DNA of 63,908 bases, the filler included, from Folioceros fuciformis (taxonomy: Eukaryota): assembly GCA_049999805.1 (NCBI GenBank). It is 5 parts of 4 records of this genome, joined end to end, with 100 filler letters (N's around TTAATTAATTAA, not from the genome) between each part and the next. Parts side by side here need not be neighbours in the genome. Positions count along the whole stretch, not along the records: positions 45,543 to 59,660 come from JBNGIO010004092.1; 4 more parts are not named here. One strand, 5' to 3'. Position 1 is the first letter of the stretch. The number at the start of each line of letters is the position of its first letter. The translations under genes were made by a program, and so were the position numbers. Below are positions 229 to 63,400 of the stretch, one piece after another. The notes under the pieces were generated by a model. The model did not search any database. It saw only the letters and a list, made by a program, of their open reading frames with translations, and was not told the DNA's origin.

Positions 229-1179
229 TGCTGCGTCTTTGCCCTACTCCGGAAGACTGACCATCGTTGTGACAAGATATCGAGTACGTATGTATTTCCG
301 GTTCCGAATCTTTTGATCTTCATGTACATGGTTTACTGCTCGAAACGTTCTCAATGGACTACCTCCTGAGTGAATTAGGGAGGTCCCTCTTGAGGCCTGA
401 ATTAGCGGGGTCTGAAGGCCGCAGGGAAGAAGCCGAACTTGCATCGATCCTGTAGCTGGCCAACGTATCAAGCAAGTGTAGGCGTGAAGAAAGGAGGTAT
501 CATTTTGGTGTGGATAAATCCTTTCTTAACGGTAACTAACAAGCGTTAGTTCCCGTTAACGATTCTTCTCCTGGACAGTACAGCATATGTAGTTCCCGCT
601 TCTCCGTTCATGTTGTCCTTCTCCGTTACTTTTTCTCCGACTTGGGAGACAGTGTTTGGCCTCAAGGCATTGGCGTGGTCGAGGTAAGTTCCGGGGGAGG
701 TATAGACTGATAATGCACGGACTCCCGTGTTGGCTGGAGCTGGTTGGTTTTAACGCGTGACCAGAAGAGCAACATACACAACATACGCAACTTCTTTGCT
801 ATGATGAGGCAACCACCAGTGGGCGACGCTTCTTGCCCTTTGTGTCCCAGCCGCCACCATCCGCGCTGGCACGCTGCTGATGGAGCAGTGTGAGCAACCA
901 GAAGCTCCCGACCTCCAGATCTGGTGGCGGCAATGCCTGCTGTGGCCGGCGGTGGATGCAGCCTCGGTCGTGAAACCGAATCGGACGCTCCAACCGCAGC
1001 AGAGGCGGGCCTCTAGACTCCGCGTCCACATCGGCACCCGCACCAGCATGGAGTTCCCCCGGCCTCAGCGAAGCGAGTGCAGGCAGCCCCGATGACGGCC
1101 GCGCAGGCCCGGATGCAGGGAGCGCGAATGCGGAGTGTCGCGGAGCTCGGCAGCTTCTCTTCTCGCCGGTGAGCTTGCA

Positions 1180-6559: not shown

Positions 6560-7800
6560 TATTGTGGCGCCTGGATGAGAACGAGTTCGAGGGTCGGATA
6601 CCTGTGGTCCAATTTGACAAGGTTGCTGAGAAGCTCTCTCCGTGTTCAAACCTGAATCCCGCATGCCAAACATTGTTTTGTTGGAGACGGGAATTGATCA
6701 TGCCATGCGAGACAGCGGCAGGTGTTCAATATTGTTGCGACATCGGAGAAGAATGCATCATCTGTATCTGCATGAATGAACAGGATTTTCCTTCTTTCCT
6801 TTAGGGTTGAGGGTTTAGGGGTTATCACGCTGGAAGACACCTCCAGAGCTTCTTGGACCAGGTGATCAGGGTCCTGGCTGTTTGTTTATCCATACCGGTG
6901 AGGGAATGCTGTATCCTGTAAGGAGTAGATATGGGTTAGACGTTCTGGCTCAGTATTCACCACGACGAGACGGTTGGTCACAAGTTCTTCCAGAACTGGA
7001 GTTAGTTTGTCGACATCAAAACGGAGACCCTTGGCTTCTCGCTTTAACCCGGCTGGAGCTATTGCGACGGTGTTGCTGACAAGGAGTAGGGTTCCCTTCT
7101 TCACATTTTCAGTGAAAAACAAAACTCTTCCTAGTTGGCTGTACTCGCTGACCATCCGAATTTCACCAGGTCCCACGAAGTCAGGGCAAGGGAGGGGCTC
7201 TTTTTAAGCCACCCCTGAAGTAGGTCTTCAAGGTTTGATGGTTCACACTTCTCCTCTTCGAAACTTCTGCCAAGGGGAGCATGTTGGCCGGGTTGTTAAC
7301 TACCAGCTCCACTTTCGATTGGGAAAGAGGTGAAAGTCAGGTTCTATCATTGCCACTTCCGTCCCTTTTGAGCCTCTGTCCACAATGTCGGCACTGGCAT
7401 TGCACATTGACACTGTTAACTCTCTGTTGCCATTGTCATCCTTTTAACTCCACAACCGCCAAACACTGTCTTCCGATTACCCTGAAAGATGGTATCGAGA
7501 TGTTGACGTAGAGCACACGACCAGTGTGCCTGCAATCCACAATTAAGTGGATACAACATGGCATCGTTCATGTCAGCACAAAGTTATCCACCAAAGTATG
7601 CCTGCTTCAACGAGTAGGTGCTGGCCAAATTCAGGAACACAGGCTGCAAAAAGTTTCAAAACCTAGTGGGCCTGCTAACATCTCGCTAGACCTCCTCCAC
7701 AAGAGCTCTCTTGCAGCACACACCTTGGGTGCTCATAGCCCAAGCATCAAGTGAGGGGCTAAGACAACGTTGACGTGCAGGAAGGTGATCCATCAACAGC
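6560..7800 (-). pseudogene. Degenerate SET-domain methyltransferase (ATXR1/SDG35-like TPR-SET family) relic
   Basis: Minus-strand PCPDFVGPGEIRM..LGRVLFFTENVKKGTLLLVSNTVA resembles the SET N-terminal GRGLF..ni..GtLl motif. It is surrounded by broken frames, and no intact NHSC motif is visible. Confidence 0.55.
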
Positions 7801-17217: not shown

Positions 17218-17298
17218 TGTTGACAATGGGATTCGAACCCATGCCCTTTCGGACCAGAACCTTAATCTGGCGCCTTAGACCAGCTCGGCCATGTCAAC
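17218..17298 (-). tRNA. trnL-AAG: tRNA-Leu (anticodon AAG)
   Basis: Minus strand reads GTTGACATGGCCGAGCTGGTCTAAGGCGCCAGATTAAGGTTCTGGTCCGAAAGGGCATGGGTTCGAATCCCATTGTCAACA. It has an acceptor stem, D and T loops, a long variable arm, an upstream AT/TATA-like tract and a downstream TTTTT. Confidence 0.97.
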
Positions 17299-35862: not shown

Positions 35863-36865
35863 TCAGAGTCCTGACAGCAGACCCCGAGCCTTCTCATACG
35901 CTACGAAAATGGCACCATTCACAACGAAGGCACGTGTCAATGTCACTCCCAACCCACGCCATAGGAACGCATGCCCCTCCGCCTGGATACTTTGCCGCAA
36001 ACAGTCCAGGCTACTGGAATACTTCAGCCTCGACGAGTCCTGCGCCTGCATCCTGCTCTTGATCACATCCACCGGGTAGATGGATGTCCAGCACATGACC
36101 CCTGCAATCCCACCTGCAACAAGCTGCGTCGTGAGACTGGACTCGCCGTGCGTTCGGGAACCTGGAGAGAGCAGTTCCCGGGCAAACTCGTTGGTGGCGA
36201 AGTACACTCCATAGCTAGGCGCGTCTCTCAACAACGTCAATCCGAAGCCCCGGTACAAGCCTCTCCATCCCTCTGTCCTCATAGTCTTCTGGACAACAGA
36301 CGAAGGTCCCGTTGCACGAGGGTGGGGGTGAAGAGAAGACACGGCAAACAAAGGATGCGGGGTGGCCGCTTGTAGTTGCAGCCGGATCTTAATAAGCTCT
36401 ACAGGTGTCATAAGCACAGACTGGACGGAGCCTGCTGCCGCACCAGCTAGCCACACCTTGGAATAGGAGAGGGGAGCATCGGAAGAGGGATCCGACAGTA
36501 CACGCTGGCAAAAGGACTTACTTACAAATGTCACGGCATTCTGTGAGGCAGTAAACGATGAGAAGGCAGCGAGGACTGATGCGCGAGGAATTGGCCAAAA
36601 GAGGAAAGCGGCTCGATGTCTTTCTTACCTGAACAGAAGCAGTGGCCAGTGGCGATAGCAGGCCTTTGAACAGAGCCTGGGGACCCTCCGAAGTCACAAG
36701 ATGTCGGAACAATCCACACACAGTAGGAGCACCAGATGCAGGGCATCGCGGTTGCTGCAGCTGTATTCTAATTGTGTCCAGAGGATGGCCAGTTATCACC
36801 CCAGCCATGCCTCCCAATCCTCCGGCCAAGAGCTCCCTCACCAGAGTCGAGCCACCAGTCTCCAT
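35863..36865 (-). CDS. BAC2: Mitochondrial carrier, basic amino acid carrier BAC2-like; exons 36865-36629 and 36540-35863
   Basis: Three PX[DE]XX[KR] repeats (HPLDTIRIQLQ, TPVELIKIRLQLQ, YPVDVIKSRMQAQ), plus LRDAPSYGVYF and RAFVVNGAIFVAYE. An alternative ATG lies at 36901. Confidence 0.85.
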
Positions 36866-40336: not shown

Positions 40337-41118
40337 TCATAGACGGAAGTTGTCAATAATGTGCGCAATCACATCAGCGCCGTCCCCATGCCTGGACGCT
40401 TCCTTCACCTGAATCGTGTTGTGCGCGGCGAAAGATCCAAAATTGATGTCCACTCTCCGCCAGCTCATCTTGCTGAGACCGGACACCATTTCCTCCTCCG
40501 CATCCTCCACCCCAGACTTGCCCCCGTTCATCGAGGGTTTCGGATCCGCCGCAACCACAGCCCCAGACGCAGCCTCCATGCCACCATCCAACGCCTCCTC
40601 CACCCGCATCACATGCGGATATTTCTCGCTCACCGGTTCCTGCTTCACCGGCGGCACGTCGGACTCCCGCCGAATGGACGCCGTCCGCCATCCCACCAGA
40701 TGGTCGAAGAACACGTTCGCATAAGCAGCCCGGGACTTGAACTCGTTCAACCCCGCCAGAAACCTCCCTTCCTGACAATCCGTGGCCATCCTCCGGAGCA
40801 GCGGCAGCCTCCCCCCGTCCCCGTCCGTCAAAAAGAGATGCCTCCCGGTCGGGCCGACGATCCAGTGCGCCATGGCCGGAGCCAAGGCCTCCAGGGCCCG
40901 CATCCCGAATAAGAAAGGCAGCTGGCCGTTCCCCCGCGACCCCAAGTGCGGGGTGGCTAGCGTGACGAAATTCATCGCCTCCAGCCCCGCGATCCCGCTC
41001 CTGCCACCTCCATTTCCTGCTCCCTCGCCGTCTCCTTGCACCAGCTGCCCTACCGCATACCTGGCCACCAAACCCCCGAGCGAATGCGCCACGAAGGAGA
41101 TTTTCCGCACCCCAGGCG
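40337..41118 (-). CDS. DUF676 alpha/beta-hydrolase (ROG1-like putative lipase), 5'-truncated by the spacer
   Basis: ISFVAHSLGGLVARYA nucleophile motif, FVTLATPHLGS, YANVFFDHLVGWRTASIRR and AHNTIQVK. Confidence 0.9.
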
Positions 41119-41218
41119 NNNNNNNNNNNNNNNNNNNNNNNNNNNNNNNNNNNNNNNNNNNNTTAATTAATTAANNNNNNNNNNNNNNNNNNNNNNNNNN
41201 NNNNNNNNNNNNNNNNNN
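41119..41218. other. Artificial contig-joining spacer
   Basis: N44-TTAATTAATTAA-N44; it truncates a different gene on each side. Confidence 0.95.
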
Positions 41219-43169: not shown

Positions 43170-44753
43170 ATGGCAGAAGATATGGAACTTGAAGAAGGCG
43201 AGATAGCACAATCTACCTCAACAGATCCTAACGACCTCTTCTACAACATAGTAAGTTGTTGTGCAATTGTTGGCTTGGCACAAAATACTTGCATTCTATT
43301 GTATGCTTGTCTTGAATCATTTATTAGTTCTAAACTAATGCAAGGACTATGTCATGTGTTGTGCATAGGATGCAAGGCTTGAAAATATACTCAGGGAGCA
43401 ACGAACTCAATTTTTGAAAGCTAGTATGGCTCATCCCGATAGATTAAGAGGTATGTTGACATGTGCAACCTAGTATCATTGTTTCTATGATGGAGGTTTC
43501 TTAAGCGACTTTGAAATTGTGCATGTGCTCCTATGCTAGAGTTGTGTTGTGCACTTTATGTGTTTTGAGAAAAAAATTTCATATGAGTTTAGGTGTCATT
43601 GATTTTAGATTTTTAAATTTGATGCTTTCTTGTGCTATTGTAAGAGGTTGGATCCTTTGATTGTTGAAGTTTGCATTCACAACTTGTGGTTTTCATTTTT
43701 TGCTATAGGACCGCAATTTGGTGCTTACGGGACCTTTCTGCCTACTTATATTAGNNNNNNNNNNNNNNNNNNNNNNNNNNNNNNNNNNNNNNNNNNNNNN
43801 NNNNNNNNNNNNNNNNNNNNNNNNNNNNNNNNNNNNNNNNNNNNNNNNNNNNNNATATGAAAACAACACAAGACCTCCATATGCAAACAACACAAGACCT
43901 CCATATACAAACAACACAAGACCTCCATATGAAAACAACACAAGACCTCCATATGCAAACAACACAAGACCTCCATATACAAACAACACAAGACCTCCAT
44001 ATGAAAACAACACAAGACCTCCATATGCAAACAACACAAGACCTCAATATGAAAACAACACAAGACCTCCATATGCAAACAACACAAGGCCTCAATATGA
44101 AAACAACACAAGACCTCAAAATGCAAACAATAAGATGGCATCGCAACCAAAAATTGGGGACAATCTTTCATATCCTATGGGACCACTACCTCATGCTCAT
44201 GCTCATAGGGCTTCTTTTCCTATATATAACGAAATGCATTTGATGTCTACATCTCAACCTCTCGACAACGCTTCGCGTGAACGCTCTAAGACTTTGCTTA
44301 AGCCTCAAATGGAGGTAAAATCTAATGGTTTGAACATGTTGTCGTATGCCGTTCATTCTCGCTTACTTTTAAAATTGCAAAGAATGACCTAAGTACTAAT
44401 TACGAATATGTGATTGATTACATCATTCTAAGCTTTGGGTCTTTTTGATGTAGGAAAACATAAGGGCTTCATGTAAAGATAAGAACTTGGGGTTGGGACT
44501 AGAAGATGGTGCCGATGATTCTTTTTCCAACCTTACTATGAGTGCAACATCCATGATTGAGGTAAGCTTTTGCATACGTGAGATTCATTGTACGTGATTT
44601 TATTTACCTTATCGCTTTATCGTTCATGGTTGGTTGTGTTGTAGTTGCTTTCCTAATGTCCTACTTTCTCTATGGCAGATGATGACAAATTATCTTCCCA
44701 ACGAGGGCCTTCTCTCCCCTCTGTCCCAATCTTTGAGAAACCTTTCCGAATAA
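43170..44753 (+). CDS. Truncated CW-type zinc finger (CWZF3/5/7-like) paralog with N-terminal motifs only; exons 43170-43250, 43369-43450, 43709-44314 (contains gap), 44454-44561, 44679-44753
   Basis: MELEEGEI...DP..LFYNI|DARLENIL, GPQFGAYGTFLPTY, LGLGLE and SATSMIE|MMTNY...LLSPL follow the order of conserved CWZF N-terminal blocks as I recall them. Introns are GT-AG and in phase, and the stop is TAA at 44751-44753. Frame across the N100 gap cannot be verified. Confidence 0.65.
43855..44130 (+). repeat. 24-bp coding minisatellite (ATATGAAAACAACACAAGACCTCC), at least 11 copies, encoding Y[EAT]NNTRP[PQ]
   Basis: Read directly. It abuts the N100 gap at 43755-43854, so the copy number is a minimum. 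Confidence 0.95.
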
Positions 44754-47632: not shown

Positions 47633-48224
47633 TTCTTATGACGGTGTGCGTCCATTGCCCTAGAAAGGGCACTAACAAATGCAATTTCCTGGACAATGGT
47701 GATCGCAAGGGAGGCGTCATCAACGATTCTAATGGTAGGTAGACCCTTTCACCACCTAGACTACGATAATTTAGGTGTCGTTGGTAGTTTTGAATTTGGA
47801 GGTCTTAGGGGGCTAGTTCTCTTTGGCCTTGTCACCTTTGTATATTGTCTCCATTTTTCAGGGTAGAAGGGTAAAAACTTGAAGGTAGAAGGGTCAAAAA
47901 TGAAGATGAGTCACCTTCAACATGTGGAAGTTCAAGACAAAGATGCTTTTGACAAAGACAGGGCTTTGGGTAGTATTGTTAGGGACTTAGCATGAGAGAC
48001 TAGCCAGGCAGGAGACAATGAAGGCAGAGCTCTATTGACCATTTGAGCCTCCCAACTTGTGGTTCTTCTAGAGTAGTTCTAGCTTCTACCAATCCTCCCT
48101 TGCACGAGTGCATGAGATCACATGTGTTAAGCACATTTAGTGGAATTTGAAGTCTTTATAGAAAAGAAGAGATGGACGTTCCATCTACCTTGTGACAAGG
48201 GGAACAACCCACAACCGCGCATTT

Positions 48225-48790
48225 AGTTGTGTGCTAGTGTTTTGTAGAGTGAATTGGCTTAGAGTTGTTTGCTAGTCTTTTGTGGATGGTTGAGAGTTGT
48301 GTGCTAGTCTTTGTGGACAGTTCAGAGTTGTGTGCTAGTCTTTTGTGAATAGTTGAGAGTTGTGTGCTAGTCTTTTGTGAATAGTTCAGAGTTGTGTGCT
48401 AGTCTTTTGTGGAGTCAATTGGCGGTTGAGAATTGTGAGAATGAGGCTTTTGTGGAGAAAATTACCTGAGAAAAGTCAAGTGTGTTGAATTGTTTGCTTG
48501 TCTTTTGTAGAGTGAATTGTCTAAGAATAGTGTGTTAGTGCGTTGTTGAGTGAATTGGCTAAGAGTTGTGTGTTAGTTTTTTGTGGAGTGAGTTGGCAGT
48601 TGAGAGTTGCAAGGCTAAGGCTTTTGTGAAGTGAATTCGCTGAGACTGGTGTACAAGGGTTTTGTGGAGTGGATTGGCCGATAATTGTGTGCTAGTCTAT
48701 TGTGAGTGAGTTGGCGGCTGAGTTGTGTGCTAGACTTTTGCGGAATGAGTTGGGGGCTGAGAGTTGAGTCCTAATATTTTGAGTCAGCCA
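48225..48790. repeat. Degenerate ~30-45-bp tandem array (GAGTTGTGTGCTAGTCTTTTGTGGA / GAATTGGC), interrupted by the MULE
   Basis: Many copies are visible, and related GAATTGGCC units resume at 52880-53000. Confidence 0.8.
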
Positions 48791-49171
48791 AGATGGGCTC
48801 CAAGGCGGGATTGAATGGCAGGCGCTAATGGTCACTATGCTCTTAATGCGAGCACGGAAACCAAAGTGCGGACTCACCATGGTTAGCATGTCACAGCGCA
48901 ACGGCCATGCCATCGCATCGCGCTCATCCACTCTCCCATTTGGCTCGACGGCATTTCGTGCTCCCCCTAATGTAATGTATAATATATATTAGCTATACCG
49001 TATAGCGATACATACCGTATACCCATATGTCTATGTATTCCTAAACTCGTCTTCAGTTTGGAGAAGTGCATACTTTGAAAGTGTCGTATCCCAGTGCAAA
49101 CTCTGAAAAATTTGTATCCCCGCACACTCGCGAGACCAAGCTCCAGAGCTGGTCGTGACCGAATTTGCAGA

Positions 49172-49571
49172 ATGAAGCTTGACTTGAACACGGTGGTCGC
49201 TCAGTTGGAGGAGGACGAGCCTACCCAGCTCAGCTTTATGCCTTTGCGCATCACTGTATAGGATTACGACAGAGGCTCACATGTCTATAGAGGTTGTGTG
49301 AAATGTTTCATTGGTATCTCACCGGGAGGGTGGTGTAAAAAATGTAAGGTTGTTGTGAATGGGCAAAATGCAATGCCGGCTGCGACTCCTCCTTGTTGAT
49401 TCCAGTTGTAAGGCATGGGCGACGACATTCACTGCTGGTAGAGATTTTATGAGGCTCACCCCTGAAGAGTTTAGCGTGAAGGAATTACAAGGAGAAGGTA
49501 CAGAAGTCTTGGACCGGTTGCTGCACAAGAGTTTCCTGTGTCTCTTCTCCATCAAAAAGGTGTCAAGGTGA
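49172..49571 (+). pseudogene. RPA70 C-terminal-like Zn-finger OB-fold gene inside the MULE (one premature stop, one frameshift)
   Basis: MKLDLNTVV...ITV*DYDRGSHVYRGCVKC...WCKKCK, then a shifted frame CRLRLLLVDSSCKAWATTFTAGRDFMRLTPEEF...LHKSFLCLFSIKK. This matches the Rep_fac-A_C pattern YxxCxxC..CxxC..l.l.D.t...w.t.F. Confidence 0.65.
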
Positions 49572-49747
49572 CACCCTTCCAGCATCATCATTCTAAGGGC
49601 TGATGTAGTCTACGTTCAGGAATTGTTTCCTGACCTTGGTGTGATGAACAATAGAGCTTATAATTTGCCATGGTTCTGCATAGTTGCTCAGACACTTCTT
49701 GTGCAAACATTTTTAGCTTTTCATGCGGACACAAATGAGTGCAGAGC

Positions 49748-52330
49748 CTATGAAGACCTTGTGAGCAAACATGTGAACAAGCCTTTGTCAATTGTTGTGC
49801 CCATTGTCGTTTGTTGTTCTCTGTCTATAGTTGTAACTATTGTGTTGGTTTCACTTCCAACAAAGAGTCTTGCTGCAATATATCTCGTAGTTTCTCTTGG
49901 AGCAATTATAATGTTGAAGCTTTTGTAAGCGGCCAAAGACACAAGCTGTCCAACGTAAATTACAAAGTGCTTACTATAGTTGGTTTTTAATTGATGTCTT
50001 ATATGTCCATATACCACAAATAGGCTTGCATTGCCTACCACATATTATGGAACAATGGTGTCCACTCGTCCAGCAAGCTCCACGAAAGTGGGCTGTTTCT
50101 TCTTATATGGCAACTTCCAAGTACTACTTCTTTCCCAAAAAGCAAGCTTCCTTTTCAAGTTATTATCTAAATTGCTATTATCAGCTAGCAATGGAAGTGT
50201 TGGAAGCATGGTGTTGCCTACTGTACCAGCTCCCATGCCCTCTAATTGTCTGATCATTTGCTGAAATAAGCTCTTCACGTGTTGCTGAAGCGAAGGCCAC
50301 TTTTCCAAAACCATTGTCAATTGTTGGTACAAACCTTCCAAACTTGGAGATGTCACCAATGTACCTACTGTGCACATGGTTGCTTGCTTAAGAACGGGAA
50401 TACCAATCTCACCTTGGCTACTTGTCCCCAAGCCATCGTCATGTGGGAGGAAATTCTCCCACATGGAAGTTTCCTCTTCAAGACTAGGTAGAAAGCTATG
50501 TTGGAACTTAGTTTGAGCGACTGCAACTTCAGAATACCTAACAACCAGCTTTTGAGTGGGGACTACCTTGTCCATGAGCAACATAACCTTGAGCTGGTGT
50601 TTGCACATGAAACCTCGCATCCCTCCCTTGCTTACACGTACAATAACCCCAAGCAGTTCTAGCACCACTCACAATATTTCTACGTGTTGTCCCATTGTCC
50701 TGACTATTGACATAAGCAATATTTGGAGAGTCTGGAGTTGGTAAGACCACATGGTTGTCTAATATGGCTGTTGCTTTTTGGAGAGCACTTCGCACAATGT
50801 TCTCTTGCTTGGAATTTCAAAGCATGCCAACTGCCTTACGCTGGGCTACATACCAAAAGTGTCTGTTAAACCTCTTCGAACAAAATATGCAGCAGCCAAT
50901 TCAATCGCCAATTACGAAGGGTTTTTCTTGGAGAGCAAACATATGTACTTCAGATGTTTGTGATATGCTTCTATGGATGAGTTGTAGTCTGGTCCGGCAT
51001 GTGGAATTGTCCTAATTGCTTTAATCCACTATAGCATGTTAAAACCCCACTGGTCTTTAAAATACTTCACAAAGCTGCTAGCAAACTCCTGGAAGGTAGC
51101 ATAAAAAAATCCAAGTCTTTGCACGCATGCTTGGTTTATGTCTACCCAACATCAATGTCCATATGCATGATATCACCTAAGGATTTCATAATTGTATACC
51201 TGGTGTCGGGTCCCTTCACCTTTTTTAGCAATTGCCGCAGCCAAGCCCTCCGAACATGCCATAGACATAAGAGAATCAGGACGTTACTTCCAAACACAGA
51301 CTTGATGCCATTTATTTCCACCATACAATTGTCTATCACAAAAGCAGTCGGTTGCCAATCTGCCCTATGTAGAAGCATCCTTGCTTGTAAGGATTCCAAC
51401 CACTGTGAAATATTGGCTGCCATATCCTGGCTGGTAATCACCCAAGCCATAGGGATACCGTTAAAATGATCGTAAAAAACCAACAGAGTGAATAGTTGGA
51501 ACTTCCACTTATTGGTGCCAAATGTGGCATCCATAGATATCACTCACTTGTGAGCCCAACGCAACATGGACTGTGACTGAAAATCTGTTTGGATGCCTAA
51601 CATAAAATCCTTGGCATGTAGCTCTTCTCTTGGCAAAGGGAAAAATACCTCCTCCCTGTGGACATCTATTCATAGCTTGACACTCACCTCATTATTTACA
51701 TGGAATCGCCACACCCTGGAATCCAACTATGCCTGCAAATTCCTTATGTCTCTAGGCAGAAAAAAAATCATCCCGCTCAAGGATTGCTTGCACATAACGA
51801 TGCTTCCTTAAAAACACCTGAGACTCATGGTCAATCAGGATCTGAAAAGTAGTCATCTTGCGGAGCAACTTATACTTCACCCACTCCTTCTTAGCTATGG
51901 ACAAGTAAGGAGCAAGGGTACAATTTGAAGCTGAATCACTCGCTAACAAACCATGACAATACTCTTCCGTTGAATCAATGTGCTCCCTTCGATGTAGTCT
52001 CAATTCAGCAACCTCAGAAAACATCTCTAGCTGTGTTACAAATAACAAAAACTGACACCCACGTTTCTTGCTTTCTCCACAGGCAATCTTGGACCGCCTG
52101 CTTCCTTTGCCTAACTTTGGCTTGTTAGTGATGTCCGCACAAACTCCAAAATCTGGAGGAGTTTGCTTTCGGTAGCCATAAGCACAAGCAAACTTGATGT
52201 AGTACCAAGGAGTGGTAGATGAAATTCCTCTTCGCCTCACACCAGATCTGGTCCAAACATTGGCCCTTATCAATTTGGTGGGGAAGAATGTCTACTTCTC
52301 TTCACCAGCAATGAAATATGGGTACCTCAT
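49748..52330 (-). pseudogene. MULE transposase with SWIM zinc finger, disrupted by stops and frameshifts
   Basis: Fragments KKRGCQF...HREH, ISMDATFGTNKWKFQLFTLLVFYDHFNGIPMAWVI, AFVIDN...LLCLWHVRRAW and YCTCKQG/CKHQLKV lie in several frames. Confidence 0.88.
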
Positions 52331-53351
52331 TCAGGGAATGTAGCAACGTTTCAAGGAAGTCACCTTCTCCTAGACAAGATGCTCACCATCCTACCAATTC
52401 AATCTCCTTACAGAAAGGATCAGGAACCTGGATTTTGTACTTCAAAAGGGCAAGTTGAGGCAGGATGGGGGCACCCACATGCCTTCTTGGCATTATTCAT
52501 CCATAAACTCTACAGGATTGTCTTCTCAGTTTGCAAATTCGGTCACGACCAGCTCTGGAGCTTGGCCTTGCGAGTGCGCGGGGATACGAAACAATTTGCA
52601 CGGGATGCGACACTTTCAGAGTATGCACTTCTTCAAACTAAAGACGGGAATACATAGAATACGAAGATATATAGGTATACGGTACGTATCGCTATATGGT
52701 ATAGCTATATTATACGTTACATTAGGGGCGCACGAAATGCCGTCCAGCCGAACGGTAGAGTGGATGAGCTCGATGCGATGGCATGGCCGCTGCGCTGTGA
52801 CATGCTAACTATGGTGACTCGGCACTTTGATTTCCGTGCTCGCATTAAGAGCACAATGACCATTAGCGCCTGCCGGATTGAATTGGCCAGGTGCAAGGCT
52901 GGAGTCAATTGGCCGGGTCCTGCAGGTCCTAGCCGGGAGAGAATTGGACAGGTCCGAATCGAGATTGAATTGGCCATCACGTCGTGAATTGGCCAGGCCC
53001 GGGAAGCTAGCAACTATTGCACCTGCAGCGTGGAAGGGGGCTATACTGTCCGTCCCCTTGTGGAAGCTATGGTCAAGTCCCTTAGATTGATGGTTCGACT
53101 TAAATCCGAGAAATCATGTAGTTCATGAAGTTCGACTAAGCGATAGACCGAGATCCGGCGACAGCTCACCAATGCGTACAGAATCAATTATGCTTGAATG
53201 ACGATGTAACTGCTGGTCAAAACTTCATAAAAAATTGAACCTCCGCACCAATTGAAACTGCTCGTGGCAATAAGCTTCCCCATGTACTCTGAAAAGAACT
53301 GCTTCCCCATTCACTCTAAAGAGGACAGAGGGAGGCAGGTTCTAACACAAG

Positions 53352-56300
53352 TCACACAGCCACCGGCTCCAGCTTTGCAGCAGCAACTTCTGGCACTGTG
53401 TCTGTTACCTGCCAACAGATACAAAAGAGATGAACGACTTGCAACATTGGACGTGCGAGCTGTCAAGGGTAGCACAGAAGTTACGAACGTGCGCCATTTT
53501 GAACAGTTCGTCTAAAACCTCCGACAGCGTTGGGTGCGCATGCACTGCGAACTTTATGTCCTGCAACGAGTAAACATTCGCACATCATTGGCAGCCCAAC
53601 AACATGGGTAGCCACTTGCCAATTCAGAAGTGTGCCGGGTGACACACCTTTACTGTTTGTCCAGTTGCAATTGCGTTTGAGGCCTCGTGGATAAGGTCAG
53701 CTGCATGCAGACCCAAAATATGGACTCCCAGAATTTCACCCGTATCCCCTCGGTATATCAGCTTCAATAGTCAGGAAAGAAAACGCTTTCAGCCCAGAGT
53801 TCCAAGTTGATAACCAGCTAAGAATCAAACCGTTCAGTAAGATATGATCAAGCACCTTCGCTATGCCATCACCCTCATTCTCGGCAAGGGCCTTTGTGTT
53901 TCCCTTGAAGCTTGTCTTCACAACTTTTACCTCGAATCCCTCTACTTTTGCTTTGTCTCGTGCCTGAGGCTGAAATTTTTCCGAGGAGCATATATGAGAG
54001 CCTAAGAAAATAGAATTAGAGAAAAATGGCACAAGACAAAACCATCTCACCTCCGTAAGGCCAGCCATACTGATCTCAGGATGAGTGAAACATGCAGCAG
54101 GAATACTGAGATGGTTCAGGACATTGTCGTTCCCAGATATCTGTTCTACAACTGGGATAACCCAAGAACCTTCATGGTCAGGGATGACCTGCTAGCAACA
54201 TTTAACACTGATGCACTCTAGGCCAGAAATCATCCAGGAAAGTCACATACCAGAAATTCCTTGTGCACTAGCTGCATGCGCAAGCATCATCTTGCCATTT
54301 GCATCTCCAATGCAAAATAGATGTGGGACCTGTGCAAAGGACCTCATCAGAGAAGGCACAAGATGCCTCAAACGTCAAATTAAACATGGCACAAGAGCAT
54401 GCATTTAGCCCATACAAAACCGAAGGGAAAGATTCAGACCAATTTGCCCTCCCCATCTAATACCCGCATGCGTTCATCCACAGGGACATAACCGCGCTGT
54501 GTGACCACACCCACCTGCAAGGACAAGTCTGAGAAAATGTTAATATCTTTGAAGTATTCGAAGGCAACATGAACGTTCAACAATTTTGAACAACCATAGC
54601 ATGGCACTCCACAAGCCTGTGGAGAACTCACGTTTTCTAGTCCCAAGCCCTTTGTGAAAGGTGCTCGTCCTGTGGCAATGAGTGCAGCATCCACCTGCCG
54701 TGGCAATGATTTACATGTTAGGGTCTAAACCAGTGCAAGCGTACGAGCCTCCTAAGGACAGATCCATAGAAGGCTACCTCCAAAACTTCCTTTAACTCCT
54801 TTGTCTTCGTGTCCACTAATTCGATCAAGACGGGCTTGCCATCCTTTGAAGGTGTGATCTGCACGTACAAACAACTCAAACACTGAGACTGCAGGCTCAG
54901 CAGTGACTAGCAAACAGAGCCCGTCCAGGCGACACCACCTTACCTTCTTAGCAAGGACACCCGTGTGGTAGTCAATCTTCCGTGGAGTGATCAAGATCCT
55001 CTGAGCAAGCTTTCCAATCTCAGGGTCAAATCCAGGCATTAGAGAATCGAGCGCCTCCACAAATGTCACCTGGAACAGAGCAGGGTGCTCTTATCAAAAC
55101 ATCTTAGGTCTTCACAGACGATGATGTTAGGTGCTCCTTCAAGATACTTCACAAACTGCTAACCTCACTTCCGAGAGCAGTGTATACATCACTGAACTCT
55201 AGACCTATGTACCCACTGCCAACAATGGCTATCCAATCGGGAACCCATTCCAACTTCAATGCATGATCACTCGTGAACACTGATTTACCTGCAAGCCCCA
55301 CAGAGATAACGAGACACTAAGGATTCTGATGGGTCTACAGAGTAGAAACGACATTATCCCCAGCAAGAAACTCTACCACTTCAATGTTTCAGGATGATTC
55401 TCACCATCAATTTCGATGCCTGGCGGCACGAAGGGAACCGATCCCGTTGCAATAATGATATTTCGGGCGGTCACAACCTTATCAGGATAACCTATCTTCC
55501 CATACTTCACTTTTTGTGGGCCCTGAGCAAAGCATCAGGGGATGATAAGTAAGTTCACAGACCTGTTCAGAAAACACCTATCGGAGTTCTAAGCCACGTG
55601 ACGAGTCACAGGTGTGATCATCAATCAAAGGTTTCAAGGGGATCCGGGACTTACAAGCAGAGTTCCGACACCTAGAAGGATATCCACGCCGATAGCCTTC
55701 ATCGAGTTCGTCAAATTCCCTCGGATTTTGAGAGCTAGGTTTTCTGCGTGAGCTGCAACAGCCTCCCTATCGTAGGAGGCTGCAGCAACCTGAATAGAGG
55801 AAAAGTTTCGCAACACTTAGTTGCAAATTCGCATTCGCTGTCCTCAGTATCTAAACACATGGGGTGCGTAATGAATAGCCCACCTGGATGCCGAGAGCCT
55901 TGAGATGATGCTCATCTCGGAGTTCTCTCATGCGCCCACTCGCAGCCAGAAGGGCTTTTGACGGCACACAACCTCTATTGACACACGTTCCTCCCACAAC
56001 ATCTCCCTCAATAATTGCAGTCTTGAGGCCCTGTTCAATTTCACACACATTCTCAAACAAGATAGAGATCTGCGACCCCCGTTCTAACAAACGAAAGTCC
56101 GATCCTCTCAAGATGCGCCCACGTGTCGCATCCTGCTAAATTCATCGAGTACCTACCCTCTCGACAGCATGAAGTGCAGCGCCATGTCCTCCAACGCCTG
56201 CTCCGATGATGATCAAATCATAGTCAAACGACTGAGGGCCCCCATTACTGGACGCCTGCGCTCTGAGATCGAAGGACCTTGCGAAACTCTGCGACAACAA

Positions 56301-56504
56301 GTGATCCTGCCCGCCGAACTTGCGAGAGTCAGATCTCCCAGACGCGCACAGACAGGCAAGCTGCTGGTAGCTACCCCGCAAAAACACCCGACCAGACGAC
56401 AGGGGCCAGCTGGAGGAAGCAGCAGACTTCCGGCATTCGGCTGCACCAGAAGTGTGAGAGCGCAGAGACGCAGGTTGGACAATGGCAGTAGCAGAAGCAG
56501 CCAT
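53352..56504 (-). CDS. LPD1: Plastidial dihydrolipoamide dehydrogenase (E3 of plastid PDC), many exons
   Basis: Transit peptide, [65 protein letters not shown] and [16 protein letters not shown]; last exon [18 protein letters not shown]. Confidence 0.95.
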
Positions 56505-57360
56505 TGCTTGTTCGCACCCCTGGTGTGCGAATGGGGTACAGGGCGTTCTGCAGGTGAGGAAGTCTTTCTCCTTTCCGCTTGCAAGCTTAGACGCTGGTTG
56601 TTGGGGAGTCTTGGTGTTGTCGTTGCACCTACACTCCTTCCTTTCCCCCGCCCCACTTCAGCTGCCCTGTCGAGGTGCAATGAGAAGGCCTGCCGGGACA
56701 CCCCGGACAAGACTAAGACACTGCCCCTAAGTTTGCCATGCAAGACTGGTGCCAGACCAGGAATGTCGGTGAGTCCGCCTAGCCTGCCCCACTTGGCCAT
56801 TGCCATCGTTTTTATCACTCTCCTTTCAACCATTCCCTTGGTCGCATAACCACCGATACCTTCGCACGGTAGCAAAGCAAACGTCATGTTAAAAATCCTA
56901 ACGGTTTACTTCTTTTTTAAAAATATTATAAAACAGACATGAAACCCATTTACCCATTAATAGGAAAGGCAATAACCAATTGAAGGGCACGTTATTTCGC
57001 GCCATCTTTCAAAATTATCAACTGCACATAGAACTCTATGGTCAAAGATGTGAAAGGCCTATGAACATAGAGTTTATTTTCTCGCGAGAACCTATTACCA
57101 TAGAGTTGAAGACGCACCTTCCTTCAACGCACCTTCTTCCAAGTTCATTGACTCATGTACAATGGTTTAAGTTCTTTGTAAATGGTTATGGATAACCTTT
57201 GCTCAAAGAAATCAACTATACAAGATGCAGCTTCTTCTACGTTCATTGACTTATGTTCATTGCATTGGTCTAAGTTCTTAGTAAATAGCAATGGATATCC
57301 TTTGCTCAAAGAAATCAAATATACAAGAAAGGGGAAGATTAGCATCAGTCTAGCAGTAGT

Positions 57361-57553
57361 GATAAACCTTGTTGCATGCTTGGTGAAGATAAACCTTGTT
57401 GCATGCTTGGTGAAGATAAACCTTAGCGCATGCTTTCGTGAAGATAAACCTTTACGCATGCTTTCGTGAAGATAAACCTTTGCGCATGCTTTCGTGAAGA
57501 TAAACCTTTGTGCATGCTTTCGTGAAGATAAACCTTGGTGCATGCTTTGGTGA
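57361..57553. repeat. 27-28-bp tandem repeat x7 (GATAAACCTTTGCGCATGCTTTCGTGAA)
   Basis: Read directly: two 27-bp units followed by 28-bp units. Confidence 0.92.
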
Positions 57554-59660
57554 CTATGGTGGCGAAACCTCAAGCACCTGAGGATCGAGACTTTGACCTC
57601 TACCGTCCACACTTATCCCTCTATTGTTGAGACATTGGGGTTTGTTCCCATGAAGGAGTGCTGGAGCTCTAGCTGTTAAGGATGGAGGGTCAGCCCTTCT
57701 ACTCATACAACCCACTATACCCTACGAACCCCCTAGGAACATATGACAAGGGTTGTATTCCTATGGCTGGTCCGACCTTACGATTTCAACACACATGCAC
57801 ACTCTTGATGATGGATTTGAGGGCTCCCTTTTAGCTCAGGTTAGATGTGGGATAGCCCTGGTTATCCAACGGTCTACTGCACCTCTCCGGTACCAATGTA
57901 CTCACTACAACCACTACAATGACACTCAACTCTAAGGCCTGCAACTTTCCTTTCTCAATCACTCACTCACTTATGCACCTACATCAACAAGACTACACTC
58001 TATACATTCTTATCAACTCTCCCACTCAACAAGAGCCACTCAACTAATGTGAAAGCGAATATATAATAACTCGTTACATTTATGGATAAGTGTCATTTCA
58101 GTTTTTAAGGTTTCAATAGTATTCAAGTTGATAGTTTGTTTTGAGATATTTACTATTAAAACGCCGTCTGAAATATATCGGCTTTCTCCACACATAATGG
58201 CTTCCAATGTTAATCCAAACATATTTGCCAATTTCTACCAATTCGGCTGGTTTTTTCAAGTTTTTGTAGGTGCATGTATGGAAAAAACATACAGTTTGGA
58301 CATGTCTATACCTCTAGTCCGTGACCTTGTGCTTTTTAGCATGTTGCATCCGATGACTCACCACGCTTTGTAGGTCTCTTCATCTGGCGAATGTGTCACC
58401 TTCCAACATTTCAGCATTTTATATCTTTTTGGATTTGGTATGCCATGGTGCCTCCAAGTCGTCTATGGAGGCAAAACCCCGGGCACTAATTGCCGATGGG
58501 TTCCACCTTTAGTGGCCACACTTATCCCACTGTCGTTGAGACATTTGGTTCCGTTCCCACGAAGGAGTGATGGGGTTCCTTGCTGTTGTGGATGGAGGGT
58601 CGGACTTGATCGACTCGATGATGGATTCGAGGGCTCCCCTCCAGCTCTGTTCAAGCGTAGGACAGGCCTCGCTGTCCGGCGGTCAGCTGCACCTCTCTCG
58701 ATGCCCACAAACTCACTCCAGTCACTACAACGACCCTAACCTCTTAGATCTGCGACTTACCTCACTCACTTCACTCACTCTCTCACTCCAGCACCAACAC
58801 CAGCAACTAACCATGACACCACTACCTTCTACATTTCCCTGCTGACTCCTCCTACCCGGCAAGAGTCACTAGACTAACCCAAAGAAAAGAAAGAAGGGAA
58901 CACACTCCCCTCTTGGGTATCTCCTCCCCACAACCTTTCCAGACGCCATGAGACATGGCCGGCCTACAACACTTGTCCAAGCAAGGAACAAGAGTGGACA
59001 GGTCGAGAGAAAGACACATTACAATCAAGAGCTAGGGGCAAGCCCCTTTACCCTGGTCATTACACCTTGTGATCCTACCAGACACTATACAACCGGCAAC
59101 ACGCTGCCTACGATCCTACCAGACACTGTACAGCCGGCAACACACTGCCTGCGATCCTACCAGACACTGTACAGTCGGCAACACGCGACTTGCGATCCTA
59201 TCAGACACTGTACAGTCGGCAACATGCGGCTTGCGATCCTACCAGACGTTGCAAAGCCGGCAACACACTACAGGTCCTAAACCAAGCAGGGACAGACCAC
59301 AAGAGCTCATGAAGAGAGGACCTCCAAGAGCTCACGAAGGGATAGACTGACTCCCAAAGTGAATGACTCCCTCCTCCTACAGGCTCACCTGATCTTATAG
59401 GAGCCTCTCTCTCTCTCTAACTTCACCTCTCTCTAACTTGAGAAATATTAGTTTAATAGCCTAGCCGGCTATCACCAGCCACTTATTTAGACTTCTAGCA
59501 CAACCTGCCACCAATGAGCTCCTGGCCCTACCACCACAAGGATCTACCACCTCTTAGACCATCCTAAGACTTCGGAGGATGTCTGATCTTCAAAGATCTG
59601 CGGACGCCGCCTCTTTCTTGTTGGGTGGTCGCCCGCTAAGTCTTCCCCTGCAACTGTTCA
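57554..59660. mobile_element. Two diverged direct copies (about 57554-58047 and 58462-58878) of an LTR-like repeat; the second probably continues to the spacer
   Basis: Collinear shared blocks CTATGG.GGC.AAACC, CCACACTTATCCC, GTTGAGACATT, GATGATGGATT.GAGGGCTCCC, CTGCACCTCTC and CAAGAG.CACT..ACTAA. No coding domain seen, so LTR identity is inferred. Confidence 0.5.
59068..59272. repeat. 41-bp tandem repeat x5 (GCGATCCTACCAGACACTGTACAGCCGGCAACACGCTGCCT)
   Basis: Units recur at 59070, 59111, 59152, 59193 and 59234. Confidence 0.92.
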
Positions 59661-59760: not shown

Positions 59761-60410
59761 CAGCGTGGCTTATCTGTGCTCGATTTGCGAAGATGGCTGT
59801 GGGCAGACGCCGCGCAACATGCCTGCCCCAAGCTCATGTCTCTGTCAGCATCAGCGCGTTCACGATTACAGCGCGCAGCTAATGCACGGGCACTGGGCTT
59901 CATCAGGGGAACAATGAAGCGCTGAGGTGCCAACTTGTGATTTCGTCTTCTCTTGAAATTCTTTCAAGAACAATGAGGATGCTGCAACATTGGTGAAGAT
60001 GCCGAGGTGCAAGGCAGCTTCTCACACACAGTGGAGAAGTGTTTGCCCTCAACCTTCACCTAAACCAGCAAGGTTTTTTGTTTGTTCATCTTGCCGGAAG
60101 CTAGAATCCGGACATTTTGCAAGCAACCAGCCACAACCTTTTGTGAGACGTATTTCCAATCGAGGCCCTGCTCAGCATACACCTTCTTCATTTCCTCGTA
60201 ACTTTCTATAACGACAACTTGAAGCTGATTTGAGGGAAGCATCTCACCAGATCCATGATTTACAAGATTTTCTCTCTATTCTTCTAACTGGAATTCAACA
60301 ATTATTTTTTCTGTCTACTCCAACTGAAGAGGAGAAGCGTGTGCATTTGGCTAGGCTATTTTCACCGGGACGCCCACGCGTGCCCCGTTCTTAATGTTTG
60401 AAAATTGGAC

Positions 60411-63400
60411 ATGCAGCCAGGTTCGCCATCATCAGCGTCTGGCAAATTTAATGAAGGCGAAGATGTGGACCTTGGCAGATTGGATTTGCAGGAGGAACCC
60501 GCTTCCCCTTTTGTCGATTCCACAACTGGCATTGATGAGCAGCAAGCGGCGTCTCCTTTTGAGCTTTTGAGAAGTTTTTGGGGCAACCCATCTGGTGTTC
60601 CCTCTCCTGCAGCAGGCAACCCTGCTGGTTTTGCAAGCACCCTTGCAAGCGCGGCAGGCTATCCTGCTGGTGGAGTTGGAATTTCCACTGCACAAGCTGC
60701 ACATTTAGGAGCCAGCACATTTCAACAACCAGTGCCTCCTGTCAACACCCTTGCACAAGCTATGGCGATCACCCCAGGTTCCTTGAAGATTGAGTTCAAG
60801 GACAAGGATCGCTTCAATGGTAATGATTACCATATCTGGGCCATGAGGCTGACCAAAATTTTGGAGGGGCATGAGCTCATGTCCGTCGTGGACGGGACAG
60901 AACCAAAACCAGCAGCACAGCCCAACAATGCAAATGCTGCTGATATTCTTGCATGGCAAAGGAAGCACAGGAGAGCCCGGTCAATCCTGTTGGCATCCCT
61001 TGACAGGAACATGATGCCGCATACCATGGACGCTGACACCTCAGCTGCAGTTTGGAACAACTTCCAACTCATCTATAGAGATAAGAGTTCTGTTTCCCTT
61101 GTTTTGGCGCATCGGGATTTTTTCAATATTCGTATGAAGGATAATGAGACTGTTGAGTCTTATATCAATAAGTTTCGCACAGCTCGTGCGACCCTTGCAT
61201 ATTGTGGGACAACTTTCGCTGAGTTTCAAGCAGCTGTTTCCTTTTTAGCATCTCTGCCTGATAGTTATTCTCTGTTTATCAATTCTCAGAATGCTACTCT
61301 TCAAGCAGTTGGACCTGGTGCCAATGTAACATTGGAGCAGGTATTTGGAGCTTTGATTGCTGAAGAACGCCGAAGGAGCCTTCACAAGTCAAAGCCTACT
61401 ATGCAGCAAGGCAGCAGAGTTTTGTTTGCTTCAAGAGGACGTGCAGGCAATCGTGGCAGAGGACGTGGGGGCTCAACACGAGGAGGATCTTCAACCTCTC
61501 GGCAGCNNNNNNNNNNNNNNNNNNNNNNNNNNNNNNNNNNNNNNNNNNNNNNNNNNNNNNNNNNNNNNNNNNNNNNNNNNNNNNNNNNNNNNNNNNNNNN
61601 NNNNNNAGTGCAAGTTCCATTCCAGCATCCAATGTAGCCACATCTAAAGGTCTGCCCAAGCCACCCTCCATCTTAGCAGTTTGCTTATCTTCTGTCCAGA
61701 TCCAGAATGACATGTGGTTCCTCGACTCGGGGGCAACTAGCCACATCTGTTTTGATAGGAATGCTTTCACTGTTTTTGACTCTACTCCAGATCATCACCA
61801 ATTTGTTCTTTTGGGTGATGACAGTGGTTTATCCATTAAGGGTACAGGATTAGTCAAGATACAGCTCCTTGACAATTCACCCCTCACCATTTCAGGTGTG
61901 TTGTTTGTCCCATCCATGACAAAGAATCTCATGTCAGTTATGAAGCTCACAGAGGAGCACTCTTGTAGAGTTTGCTTTGACAATACAGGTTGTTCTATCA
62001 TTAGCAATAGTATTGGATCTAACCTATTTACAGGGACACCTTTTCATGATTTGTACCTTCTCAATGTTAGAACTTTGAATAGTTCACTTGCAACTGCTAA
62101 TGTTACCCAAGCTTTTGGTCTCTCCCCCACTCAGCTTTGGCATTGCCGAGTAGGACATATGAATTTTAATAGGCTTTCCACTTTGGTCAATAACTCAGTT
62201 TTTAGAGATCTCTTTTGATAATAGAGCCTTTTGTGATTCTTGTCAATTGAGCAAGGCAATTTCACAACCTTTTAGAGACCAAAACTTATCAAGAGCTATC
62301 AGTCTCCTTCACACTGTTCATAGTGACATATGTGGCCCCATGTCCACCATGTCTTTTGGTGGAGCATCATATTTTATCACTTGTATTGATGAATGGAGCC
62401 GCTATTGCACAGTTTTTGTTCTTGCACATAAGAGTGAAGCCCTGTCATGTTTTCAGACGTATTTAGCTTCTGCTCAGCGTCAGACAGGTCATCAACTGAA
62501 AATTCTCAGGGCTGATAATGGAGGTGAGTATATAAGTAATGCCTTCACAGAATTTTGTGCTGGAGAGGGAGTTCTTCATCAATTTACAGTTCCTTATACT
62601 CCAGCTCAGAATGCTTTCGCTGAACGCAAGAATAGGACCCTTCAAGAGGCTACACTGTCCAGCTTGGCATTTGCAGGCCTCACTAGGGGATATTGGGCTG
62701 AAGCCCTTATGGCAGCTAATTATGTGCAGAACAGGTTGCCTACGAAGGAGCTTGGCTTGGTTACCCCTTATGAGCGCTGGACTGGGAAGAAGCCACGGAT
62801 CACTCATCTACGTATTTTTGGAGCACCAGCATATGCCTTAATCCCTTCTGCACTTCGGAGTAAGCTTGATCCTAAAGCTGTTCGCCGCATTTTCATTGGT
62901 TATTCGGACGAGGTAAAGGGATATAAGCTTTTTGATCCAAGTACTCGGCAAGTTTCCATTTCTCGGAGTGTTGTTTTTCATGAGAATTCTCTTCTCCGAC
63001 GTCATGAAGCTGCTTTGGATCCTACTTCTTTTGATTCTACTGTTTCTATTCATGGAGTGGATGACTTGGCTGATTACAATACTGATGCTGATGCTGATGT
63101 CTCTATTTTTTGATACTGATGATGTTTCCAGTTCACCTTCCTCGGCTCCAGGGGGGGCTACAACATCCAGTTCACATGCACAAGCTCCTCTTCCTAGTGC
63201 TTCCCCAGCACTTGAATCTTCTCCACCAGATGAGTCTTCTGCAGTTCCCTCCTTGTTGGACCCTTGGAAGTTGATACTATTGTTGTTACTTTTGATTCTG
63301 ACCCCCCTTCGTCTGATCCTGAGCCCACACCTGATCCAGTTGAGCCTACACCTGAGCCAGTTTTGCGTAGATCTACACGCTATAGACCACCTCGTAGTGA

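Follow-up and report, generated by a model that had tools for sequence, protein, structure and literature searches.

A decayed two-gene Mutator-like element in Folioceros fuciformis whose second gene probably encodes an RPA70-type zinc-OB domain

Structure of the element

The stretch of DNA analysed in this work (the window) is 63,908 nucleotides long and comes from Folioceros fuciformis (assembly GCA_049999805.1). The window contains a single copy of a Mutator-like element (MULE) that spans 4058 bp (48817-52874), within the part that comes from JBNGIO010004092.1. The element has two long terminal inverted repeats (TIRs), a target-site duplication (TSD), a transposase pseudogene that reads inward from the right TIR, and a second open reading frame (ORF2) that reads inward from the left TIR. 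We lean, with modest confidence, towards a reading in which this locus is a dead member of a multi-copy family of two-gene MULEs with the layout of maize MuDR. ORF2 is then most likely a family gene for a zinc-bearing oligonucleotide/oligosaccharide-binding (OB) fold that resembles the DBD-C domain of RPA70, a protein of the replication protein A (RPA) complex. The features of the element are listed below.

48808-48816, no strand: left TSD, GGATTGAAT, read directly and identical to 52875-52883
48817-49175, plus strand: left TIR, 359 bp, with the ORF2 ATG at its inner edge (inverted-repeat search, blastn, and MAFFT)
49172-49571, plus strand: ORF2 in the present copy, with TAG at 49259-49261, a +1 frameshift at 49365-49368, and TGA at 49569-49571 (frames and read-through)
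49572-49640, plus strand: continuation of ORF2 in the same frame, with the predicted last OB strands (...SIIILRADVVYV...; by-eye reading against MAFFT alignment A2)
50045-52493, minus strand: transposase pseudogene of about 815 codons (frames followed from ATG to stop)
50597-50642, minus strand: SWIM-like CxC...CxH motif, split by a frameshift (by-eye reading of the frames)
51145-51543, minus strand: MULE DDE/RNase-H-like core (Pfam PF10551 and PF21056)
52526-52874, minus strand: right TIR, 349 bp (inverted-repeat search, blastn, and MAFFT)
52875-52883, no strand: right TSD, GGATTGAAT, read directly

The original prediction, which was made from the sequence before this analysis, had described TIRs of about 350 bp and a perfect 9-bp TSD. 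Both were recovered, with arms of 359 and 349 bp and the same nine bases on both sides. The two arms pair as four blocks of 150, 68, 45, and 65 nt (82-91%) in the inverted-repeat search. The left and right TIRs match at 85.6% over 362 columns in blastn, and their global alignment by MAFFT has 316 matches, 55 mismatches, and 16 gap columns. The length of the TSD is within the range of 8-11 bp given for the MULE superfamily (PMC6446971).

Both flanks of the element consist of a 32-38-bp tandem satellite. The satellite core GAATTGGC recurs at 48218-48780 and a degenerate form of the satellite is present at 52884-53030. The MULE inserted into one unit of this satellite. The joined flanks with one copy of the TSD rebuild a satellite-like unit, which fits the expectation for an empty site.

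Transposase gene

The minus-strand frames that start at 52493 read inward from the right TIR as had been predicted. The likely start of the transposase is the ATG at 52493, which is 33 nt inside the inner edge of the right TIR. The piece at 51142-51543 matches the Pfam family MULE (PF10551; E 6.4e-10, 39.8 bits against a cut-off of 27.6). The same piece also matches ZSWIM1-3_RNaseH-like (PF21056; E 3.1e-6). The Pfam search exhibited no SWIM match on either frame piece around the CxC...CxH motif. The N-terminal piece of 179 aa matched no Pfam family at E<=1, including those of the WRKY/FAR1 type, and this is weak evidence since the region is broken. The transposase core was also searched against longer proteins using a word-indexed search, where none of the 70 candidates was a relative. 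The Pfam search on the frames between both genes (49572-50044, both strands) gave nothing meaningful.

Second gene and its lesions

The ATG of ORF2 (49172-49174) lies within the last 4 bases of the homology between the left and right TIRs, where the right arm has CTG. The TIR homology runs through this codon in the MAFFT alignment, in agreement with the original prediction, which had placed the ATG 3 nt inside the left TIR. The frame consists of 252 codons that are open but for three lesions, and it has no intron. The +1 frameshift sits in an A-run (49365-49368). The zinc ribbon (CxxC...CxxC) maps to about 49295-49345, and every protein motif that had been quoted for ORF2 was found in the frames. 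The TGA at 49569 comes ahead of the final strands in the predicted OB fold. The frame after this TGA is open to 49928 in the present copy (same-frame ORF at 49572-49928). The read-through protein that was used for the searches has X placed at the breaks.

Both genes are disrupted, as had been noted previously. ORF2 has the TAG and the frameshift, and the transposase has about six in-frame stops and about six frame changes. Both genes are inactive in the present copy, mostly through changes of the C-to-T type.

Other copies of the family

The other copies were identified from the contigs of two public runs of one sample (X1 and X2) that have at least 80% identity to the stretch. X1 holds 0.86 of the words of the stretch, X2 holds 0.67, and a third run (X3) holds 0.05. 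There are 163 such contigs from X1 and 137 from X2. The X1 contigs comprise 62 contigs with at least 99% identity, 27 with 95-99%, 43 with 90-95%, and 31 with less than 90%. The summed X1 depth is 24-131 inside the element compared with 5-15 in the flanks. The contig counts, the identity classes, and the raised depth within the element indicate that the element family is multi-copy.

The X1 depth in the ORF2 bins (49128-49912) is 45-69, which is comparable with the transposase part. One contig of 605 nt has 15 differences over 49177-49367 and 36 differences over 49477-49741, with an unlike segment between these two matches. The original prediction had named the presence of ORF2 in this copy only as a sign of ordinary capture, and this is not what was found, as the contigs of both X1 and X2 carry ORF2. 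ORF2 is part of the MULE family and was not captured by the present copy alone.

The three X1 contigs that have CGA in place of the TGA at 49569 account for a depth of 36.9 out of 43, and two X2 contigs also have CGA. This TGA is a lesion (a CGA-to-TGA change) and not the natural end of the gene. Since other copies read CGA at this position, ORF2 is longer than the length of about 130 aa that had been proposed, and that estimate is too short. ORF2 would encode at least about 150 aa in less decayed copies, as judged from its reading frame. The frame is restored by one base fewer at 49365 in two X1 contigs and one X2 contig (...NGQMQCRLRLLLVD...), hence the frameshift is private to some copies. 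Other copies also read CGA at the minus-strand transposase TGA (50819), and they are one base shorter at 50868 and again at 50922. As these transposase lesions are absent from other copies, the present copy is a decayed member of its family.

The metagenome scans with ORF2 gave 332 pattern matches, none of which was confirmed. The metagenome scan with a 20-nt TIR word gave no match. The differences in a further run (X4) over 48500-53200 are mostly C>T (184 places) and G>A (265 places), which is bisulfite-like. The differences in X4 were set aside because of this strong excess. If X4 is bisulfite-converted, it could show the methylation state of the MULE family.

Identity of the second gene

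ORF2 probably encodes a zinc-OB domain of the Rep_fac-A_C kind (PF08646), and this likeness is read from its sequence. We have considered the alternative that ORF2 is not an OB fold. In that case, it would be a different small protein with a zinc ribbon, or decayed non-coding DNA that contains CxxC...CxxC by chance, and its likeness to the family would come from the spacing of cysteines or from composition. This alternative is improbable in our judgement, and the evidence on both sides of it is given together with each search below.

Atlas is a language-model feature search, and it was queried with the natural 70-aa piece of ORF2 (49359-49571) that has no zinc ribbon. The first match is a Rep_fac-A_C cluster (score 0.92, 190 of 256 features), and Rep_fac-A_C is carried by 15 of the 30 matches. 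The other families shown include RMI1_C, CTC1, and OB_POT1A, all of which are RPA-type OB folds. The ten best family-bearing matches all share the family or the clan of the best match. This result comes from the half of ORF2 without the zinc ribbon, which argues against a likeness that is due to the cysteines. In contrast, the zinc piece alone retrieved only generic zinc ribbons with scores below 0.9, which is also what another small zinc-ribbon protein would give. Shuffled proteins reach a first Atlas match of at least 0.9 in 4-10 of 100 cases; this fits a chance likeness, and the Rep_fac-A_C match is thus a lead and not a proof.

A single family was tested using a targeted profile because the original prediction had named Rep_fac-A_C in advance. 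The archaeal genomes for the profile were selected by a 16S primer scan, and PF08646 was found in 2 of 5 genomes and then in 123 of 151 genomes of one phylum. The first profile is a hidden Markov model (HMM) of 32 excised archaeal Rep_fac-A_C domains. A search with the archaeal profile for longer proteins gave 191 matches; the 120 listed all carry PF08646, and every name shown is archaeal. A second profile was made from 21 more diverse sequences. The archaeal profile contains no eukaryotic RPA70.

The first profile matches the ORF2 read-through to 49640 with 11.8-12.3 bits (11.8 bits corresponds to a single-sequence E of 8.2e-6). The aligned region is collinear and extends over the first strand, the zinc ribbon, the strand with R-x-hydrophobic-x-D, and the helical part. 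None of 2,000 and none of 20,000 shuffles reached the score of 11.8 bits, and the best shuffle has 11.1 bits. None of the 1,244 natural ORFs of the window is above 8.3 bits with this profile. The hhalign comparison with the first profile gave 83.7% and 84.3% in two runs (the latter with E 7.2e-6 over 90 columns). In the MAFFT alignment A2 with the 32 domains, ORF2 also retains Tyr, Asp, and three Cys that are invariant in the family, along with a fourth Cys that is nearly so. Y39, C42, C45, C55, and C58 of the read-through are located in invariant or near-invariant columns of these archaeal domains. The full-length collinear match, which exceeds all 20,000 shuffles and all 1,244 natural ORFs, and the Tyr, Asp, and four Cys in the invariant columns both argue against a chance likeness. 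The 252 codons that are open bar three lesions also argue against a non-coding stretch, as the TGA is absent from most overlapping contigs and the frameshift from some of them.

Several findings weigh against the reading of this locus as a two-gene MULE with a zinc-OB gene. The Pfam search with the ORF2 read-through and with both of its pieces matched no family at E<=10, and ORF2 is far below the gathering threshold of PF08646 (28.5 bits). The NCBIfam search with ORF2 also matched no family and the search of PDB sequences gave no match; these three null results are those expected if ORF2 is not an OB fold. The second profile gave 10.9 bits, which was reached by 1 of 10,000 shuffles, and hhalign with this profile gave only 24.1% (E 8e-4), which is again in line with a fold of another kind. 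Most of the HMM signal comes from the zinc half, which has 7.8 bits (2 of 5,000 shuffles score as high), and the half without the zinc ribbon has only -1.8 bits by HMM (reached by 823 of 5,000 shuffles). A chance Cys-rich ORF at 7239-7508 (plus strand, CPQC...CCHC) has 8.3 bits, as high as the zinc piece of ORF2 alone, which favours an origin of the likeness in cysteine spacing. The AlphaFold2 model of ORF2 from the single sequence without an alignment has a pLDDT of 37.5. The borrowed archaeal Rep_fac-A_C alignment raised the pLDDT to 83.1, and the Foldseek search with that model placed RPA70 DBD-C chains first (9pd3_N, 9mj5_C, 1l1o_F, and 8rk2_A) and Teb1 OB-C (3u50) in the top six, with TMq of 0.61-0.67. 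However, the borrowed alignment dictates the fold, so these matches are not independent and indicate compatibility only. The evidence on other copies rests on the contig tables of one sample and yields no copy number, and no intact copy is present among these tables.

The proposal of an RPA70-type zinc-OB fold is supported, though at a level below the family thresholds. The Atlas result, the targeted profile (0 of 20,000 shuffles), and hhalign with the first profile (84%) are in favour of it, whereas hhalign with the second profile gave 24%. The comparison with Rep_fac-A_C that had been suggested was likewise divided between these two hhalign values, with a Foldseek match that was obtained only via the borrowed-alignment model.

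The Cys-rich ORF at 7239-7508 served as a natural control for the Rep_fac-A_C profile and is not an RPA-like gene.

Origin of the second gene

RPA70 is conserved across eukaryotes. A near-identical RPA1 exon would thus match the RPA70 of many species. The phmmer search of ORF2 against 1.84e9 (1.84 billion) protein representatives gave no true relative, and its two matches are bacterial repeat proteins that align on repeats. This search rules out that ORF2 was recently copied from a conserved RPA1 exon of the host, and the near-identity to such an exon that the original prediction had named as another sign of capture was not found. The search for homologues of near length gave eight candidates, none of which was significant.

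Another possibility is that ORF2 is a passenger. A lineage-specific RPA-like gene or a retro-copied fragment, from a host paralogue or from the RPA of a Helitron, would have been acquired by the ancestor of the MULE and would have no role in transposition. We consider this origin possible but on the unlikely side. It has been reported that host DNA is often captured by MULEs and that extra ORFs are often assumed to be host-derived (PMC6446971, PMC6431247). It has also been reported that 335 Pfam domains occur once each among the non-transposase proteins of active plant TIR elements (PMC12973397). A divergent copy differs from the stretch in ORF2 at 15 of 191 and 36 of 265 positions, and to about the same degree in the transposase (74 of 554 and 55 of 490 positions). 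No extra conservation of ORF2 is visible in this copy, which is also consistent with a passenger.

On the other hand, ORF2 starts at the edge of the TIR, the start of the protein is the start of the domain, and the gene covers the whole domain without an intron, unlike typical genomic fragments. Several diverged copies also have ORF2 next to the transposase. ORF2 is distant from all known RPAs, with no detectable likeness to any RPA70 among the protein representatives. These points favour an integral gene. The RPAs of plant Helitrons have been reported from monocots and dicots only (PMC4683698), which does not favour a Helitron source. The word-indexed protein search retrieved no relative of the MULE core, a result that would be unusual if the element were an angiosperm MULE.

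Comparison with known systems

Maize MuDR has a convergent layout of mudrA and mudrB. Both MuDR and the element in this work have long TIRs together with a 9-bp TSD, and their transposase has a MULE DDE core; the SWIM-like finger that follows this core is putative in the present element, where it was read by eye. In both, a second gene that is convergent with the transposase begins at the other TIR. The MuDR-like convergent layout that had been proposed is seen in the positions of the two start codons, with the ORF2 ATG (49172) in the last bases of the left TIR and the transposase ATG (52493) 33 nt inward of the right TIR. Unlike MuDR, ORF2 consists of a single small domain that resembles a zinc-OB fold. 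No likeness to MURB was found in the phmmer search of ORF2, where MURB itself was not compared directly and its presence among the representatives is unverified. The transposase core of this element is also distant from the MULEs in the database (0 of 70 candidates). It has been reported that mudrB is needed for integration (PMC6446971, PMC12973397).

The RPA70 DBD-C (PF08646; human 1L1O and Tetrahymena Teb1 OB-C 3U50) and ORF2 exhibit the same order of elements, which are predicted ones in ORF2. Both have a beta strand, a four-Cys zinc ribbon, a strand with R-x-hydrophobic-x-D, a helical stretch, and two final strands. Unlike RPA70 DBD-C, ORF2 would be a stand-alone domain of about 150 aa and not the last of four OB folds, and it is encoded inside a cut-and-paste transposon. 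The C-terminal end of ORF2 is cut off by the TGA in the present copy.

Plant Helitrons carry PHRPA, and both PHRPA and ORF2 are transposon-borne, RPA-like proteins beside a transposition enzyme (PMC4683698, PMC6431247). Unlike Helitrons, this element is bounded by TIRs and a TSD and carries the gene of a DDE transposase, and the Pfam search on the pieces scanned exhibited only MULE-type domains and no Rep/helicase. No sequence likeness of ORF2 to any RPA-like protein was found in the database. The transposition of Helitrons passes through single-stranded DNA (ssDNA), so the use of RPA has an obvious rationale; the cut-and-paste transposition of MULEs has none such. A Helitron with an RPA-like gene as the identity of the element is ruled out by the TIRs and the TSD.

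Other MULEs have accessory ORFs, namely vanB and vanC of VANDAL/Hiun, mutB of Mutyl, PMD, Zf-GRF, and Peptidase_C48. These MULEs have extra coding sequence between their TIRs, as does the element in this work. It has been reported that the accessory proteins of MULEs are diverse and lineage-specific (PMC6446971, PMC12973397). Pack-MULEs have no transposase and carry fragments of host genes, whereas this element has a whole domain beside a transposase pseudogene. A Pack-MULE is ruled out by that pseudogene. We have found no Mutator element with an RPA-like gene in the literature searched, although the full domain table of PMC12973397 (its table S6) may already list one. Within this literature, of which the sources were available in part, an RPA-type OB partner gene has not so far been described for the Mutator class.

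Proposed role of the second gene

The element would be an autonomous-type MULE in which two TIRs of about 355 bp each face an inward-reading gene. The right gene would encode a transposase with an N-terminal region, the MULE DDE core, and the SWIM-like finger. The left gene has its ATG on the inner TIR edge; it would lack introns and encode one small domain. The most likely form of this domain is the RPA70 DBD-C or Rep_fac-A_C kind of OB fold, into which a zinc ribbon with four Cys is inserted. Both genes would be transcribed from the TIRs. The OB protein may act as an accessory factor, by analogy with MURB and with the RPA of Helitrons. As candidate roles, it may bind ssDNA at cut ends or in gap repair, or dock to the transposase or to RPA subunits of the host.

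A further proposal goes beyond the two-gene MULE with a family zinc-OB gene. In this proposal, a Mutator lineage would have a zinc-OB protein of the RPA70 DBD-C type as an obligate second gene that is expressed from the TIR opposite the transposase, and this protein would handle ssDNA or recruit RPA32 and RPA14 of the host. We put it forward tentatively, as a speculative analogy that we doubt more than we believe. If it is true, ssDNA would be handled at the excised ends or at the gapped donor site, which implies a single-stranded step in the transposition of MULEs. ORF2 would then be a convergent counterpart of the RPA gene of Helitrons and a functional stand-in for MURB. Little is understood about what the second genes of Mutator elements do, and MURB is the one that has been studied. 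If such a gene carries a recognisable ssDNA-binding fold, this would offer a concrete biochemical hypothesis for the function of the partner protein, and it would show that RPA-like proteins were recruited by two unrelated classes of transposons. If ORF2 is a mere passenger, the element would be one more decayed MULE of little note.

Neighbouring features

A contig of run X3, whose kind is guessed to be RNA, starts inside the right TIR at 52657 and runs into the flank, past 53200. The contig is 2737 nt long with a depth of 292 and no differences. It is the sole contig of this run, it covers the element only from 52657 rightwards, and no run recorded as RNA is listed with the element. A host transcript to the right of the element may end inside the right TIR. 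The exons of a minus-strand host gene on this side carry, as read by eye, redox-disulfide and FAD motifs like those of an oxidoreductase of the dihydrolipoamide-dehydrogenase type.

The other features of the window are listed below; the frame with DUF7780, the mitochondrial carrier, the serine esterase, and the tRNA are of host type. The window has an N content of 652, and the tRNA is its only Rfam match.

1096-3030, plus strand: open frame of 644 codons with DUF7780 (E 3e-64)
17218-17298, minus strand: tRNA
35863-36624, minus strand: mitochondrial carrier
40337-41170, minus strand: DUF676 serine esterase
43855-44130: minisatellite, 24 bp x 11.5
55851-56135 and 56142-56657, minus strand: exons of the host gene to the right of the element
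57361-57553: minisatellite, 28 bp x 7
59071-59266: minisatellite, 41 bp x 4.8
60402-63113: ORFs of a Ty1/copia-type retrotransposon, with Retrotran_gag_2 (E 8e-28) followed by the rve integrase core and a retroviral SH3-like domain

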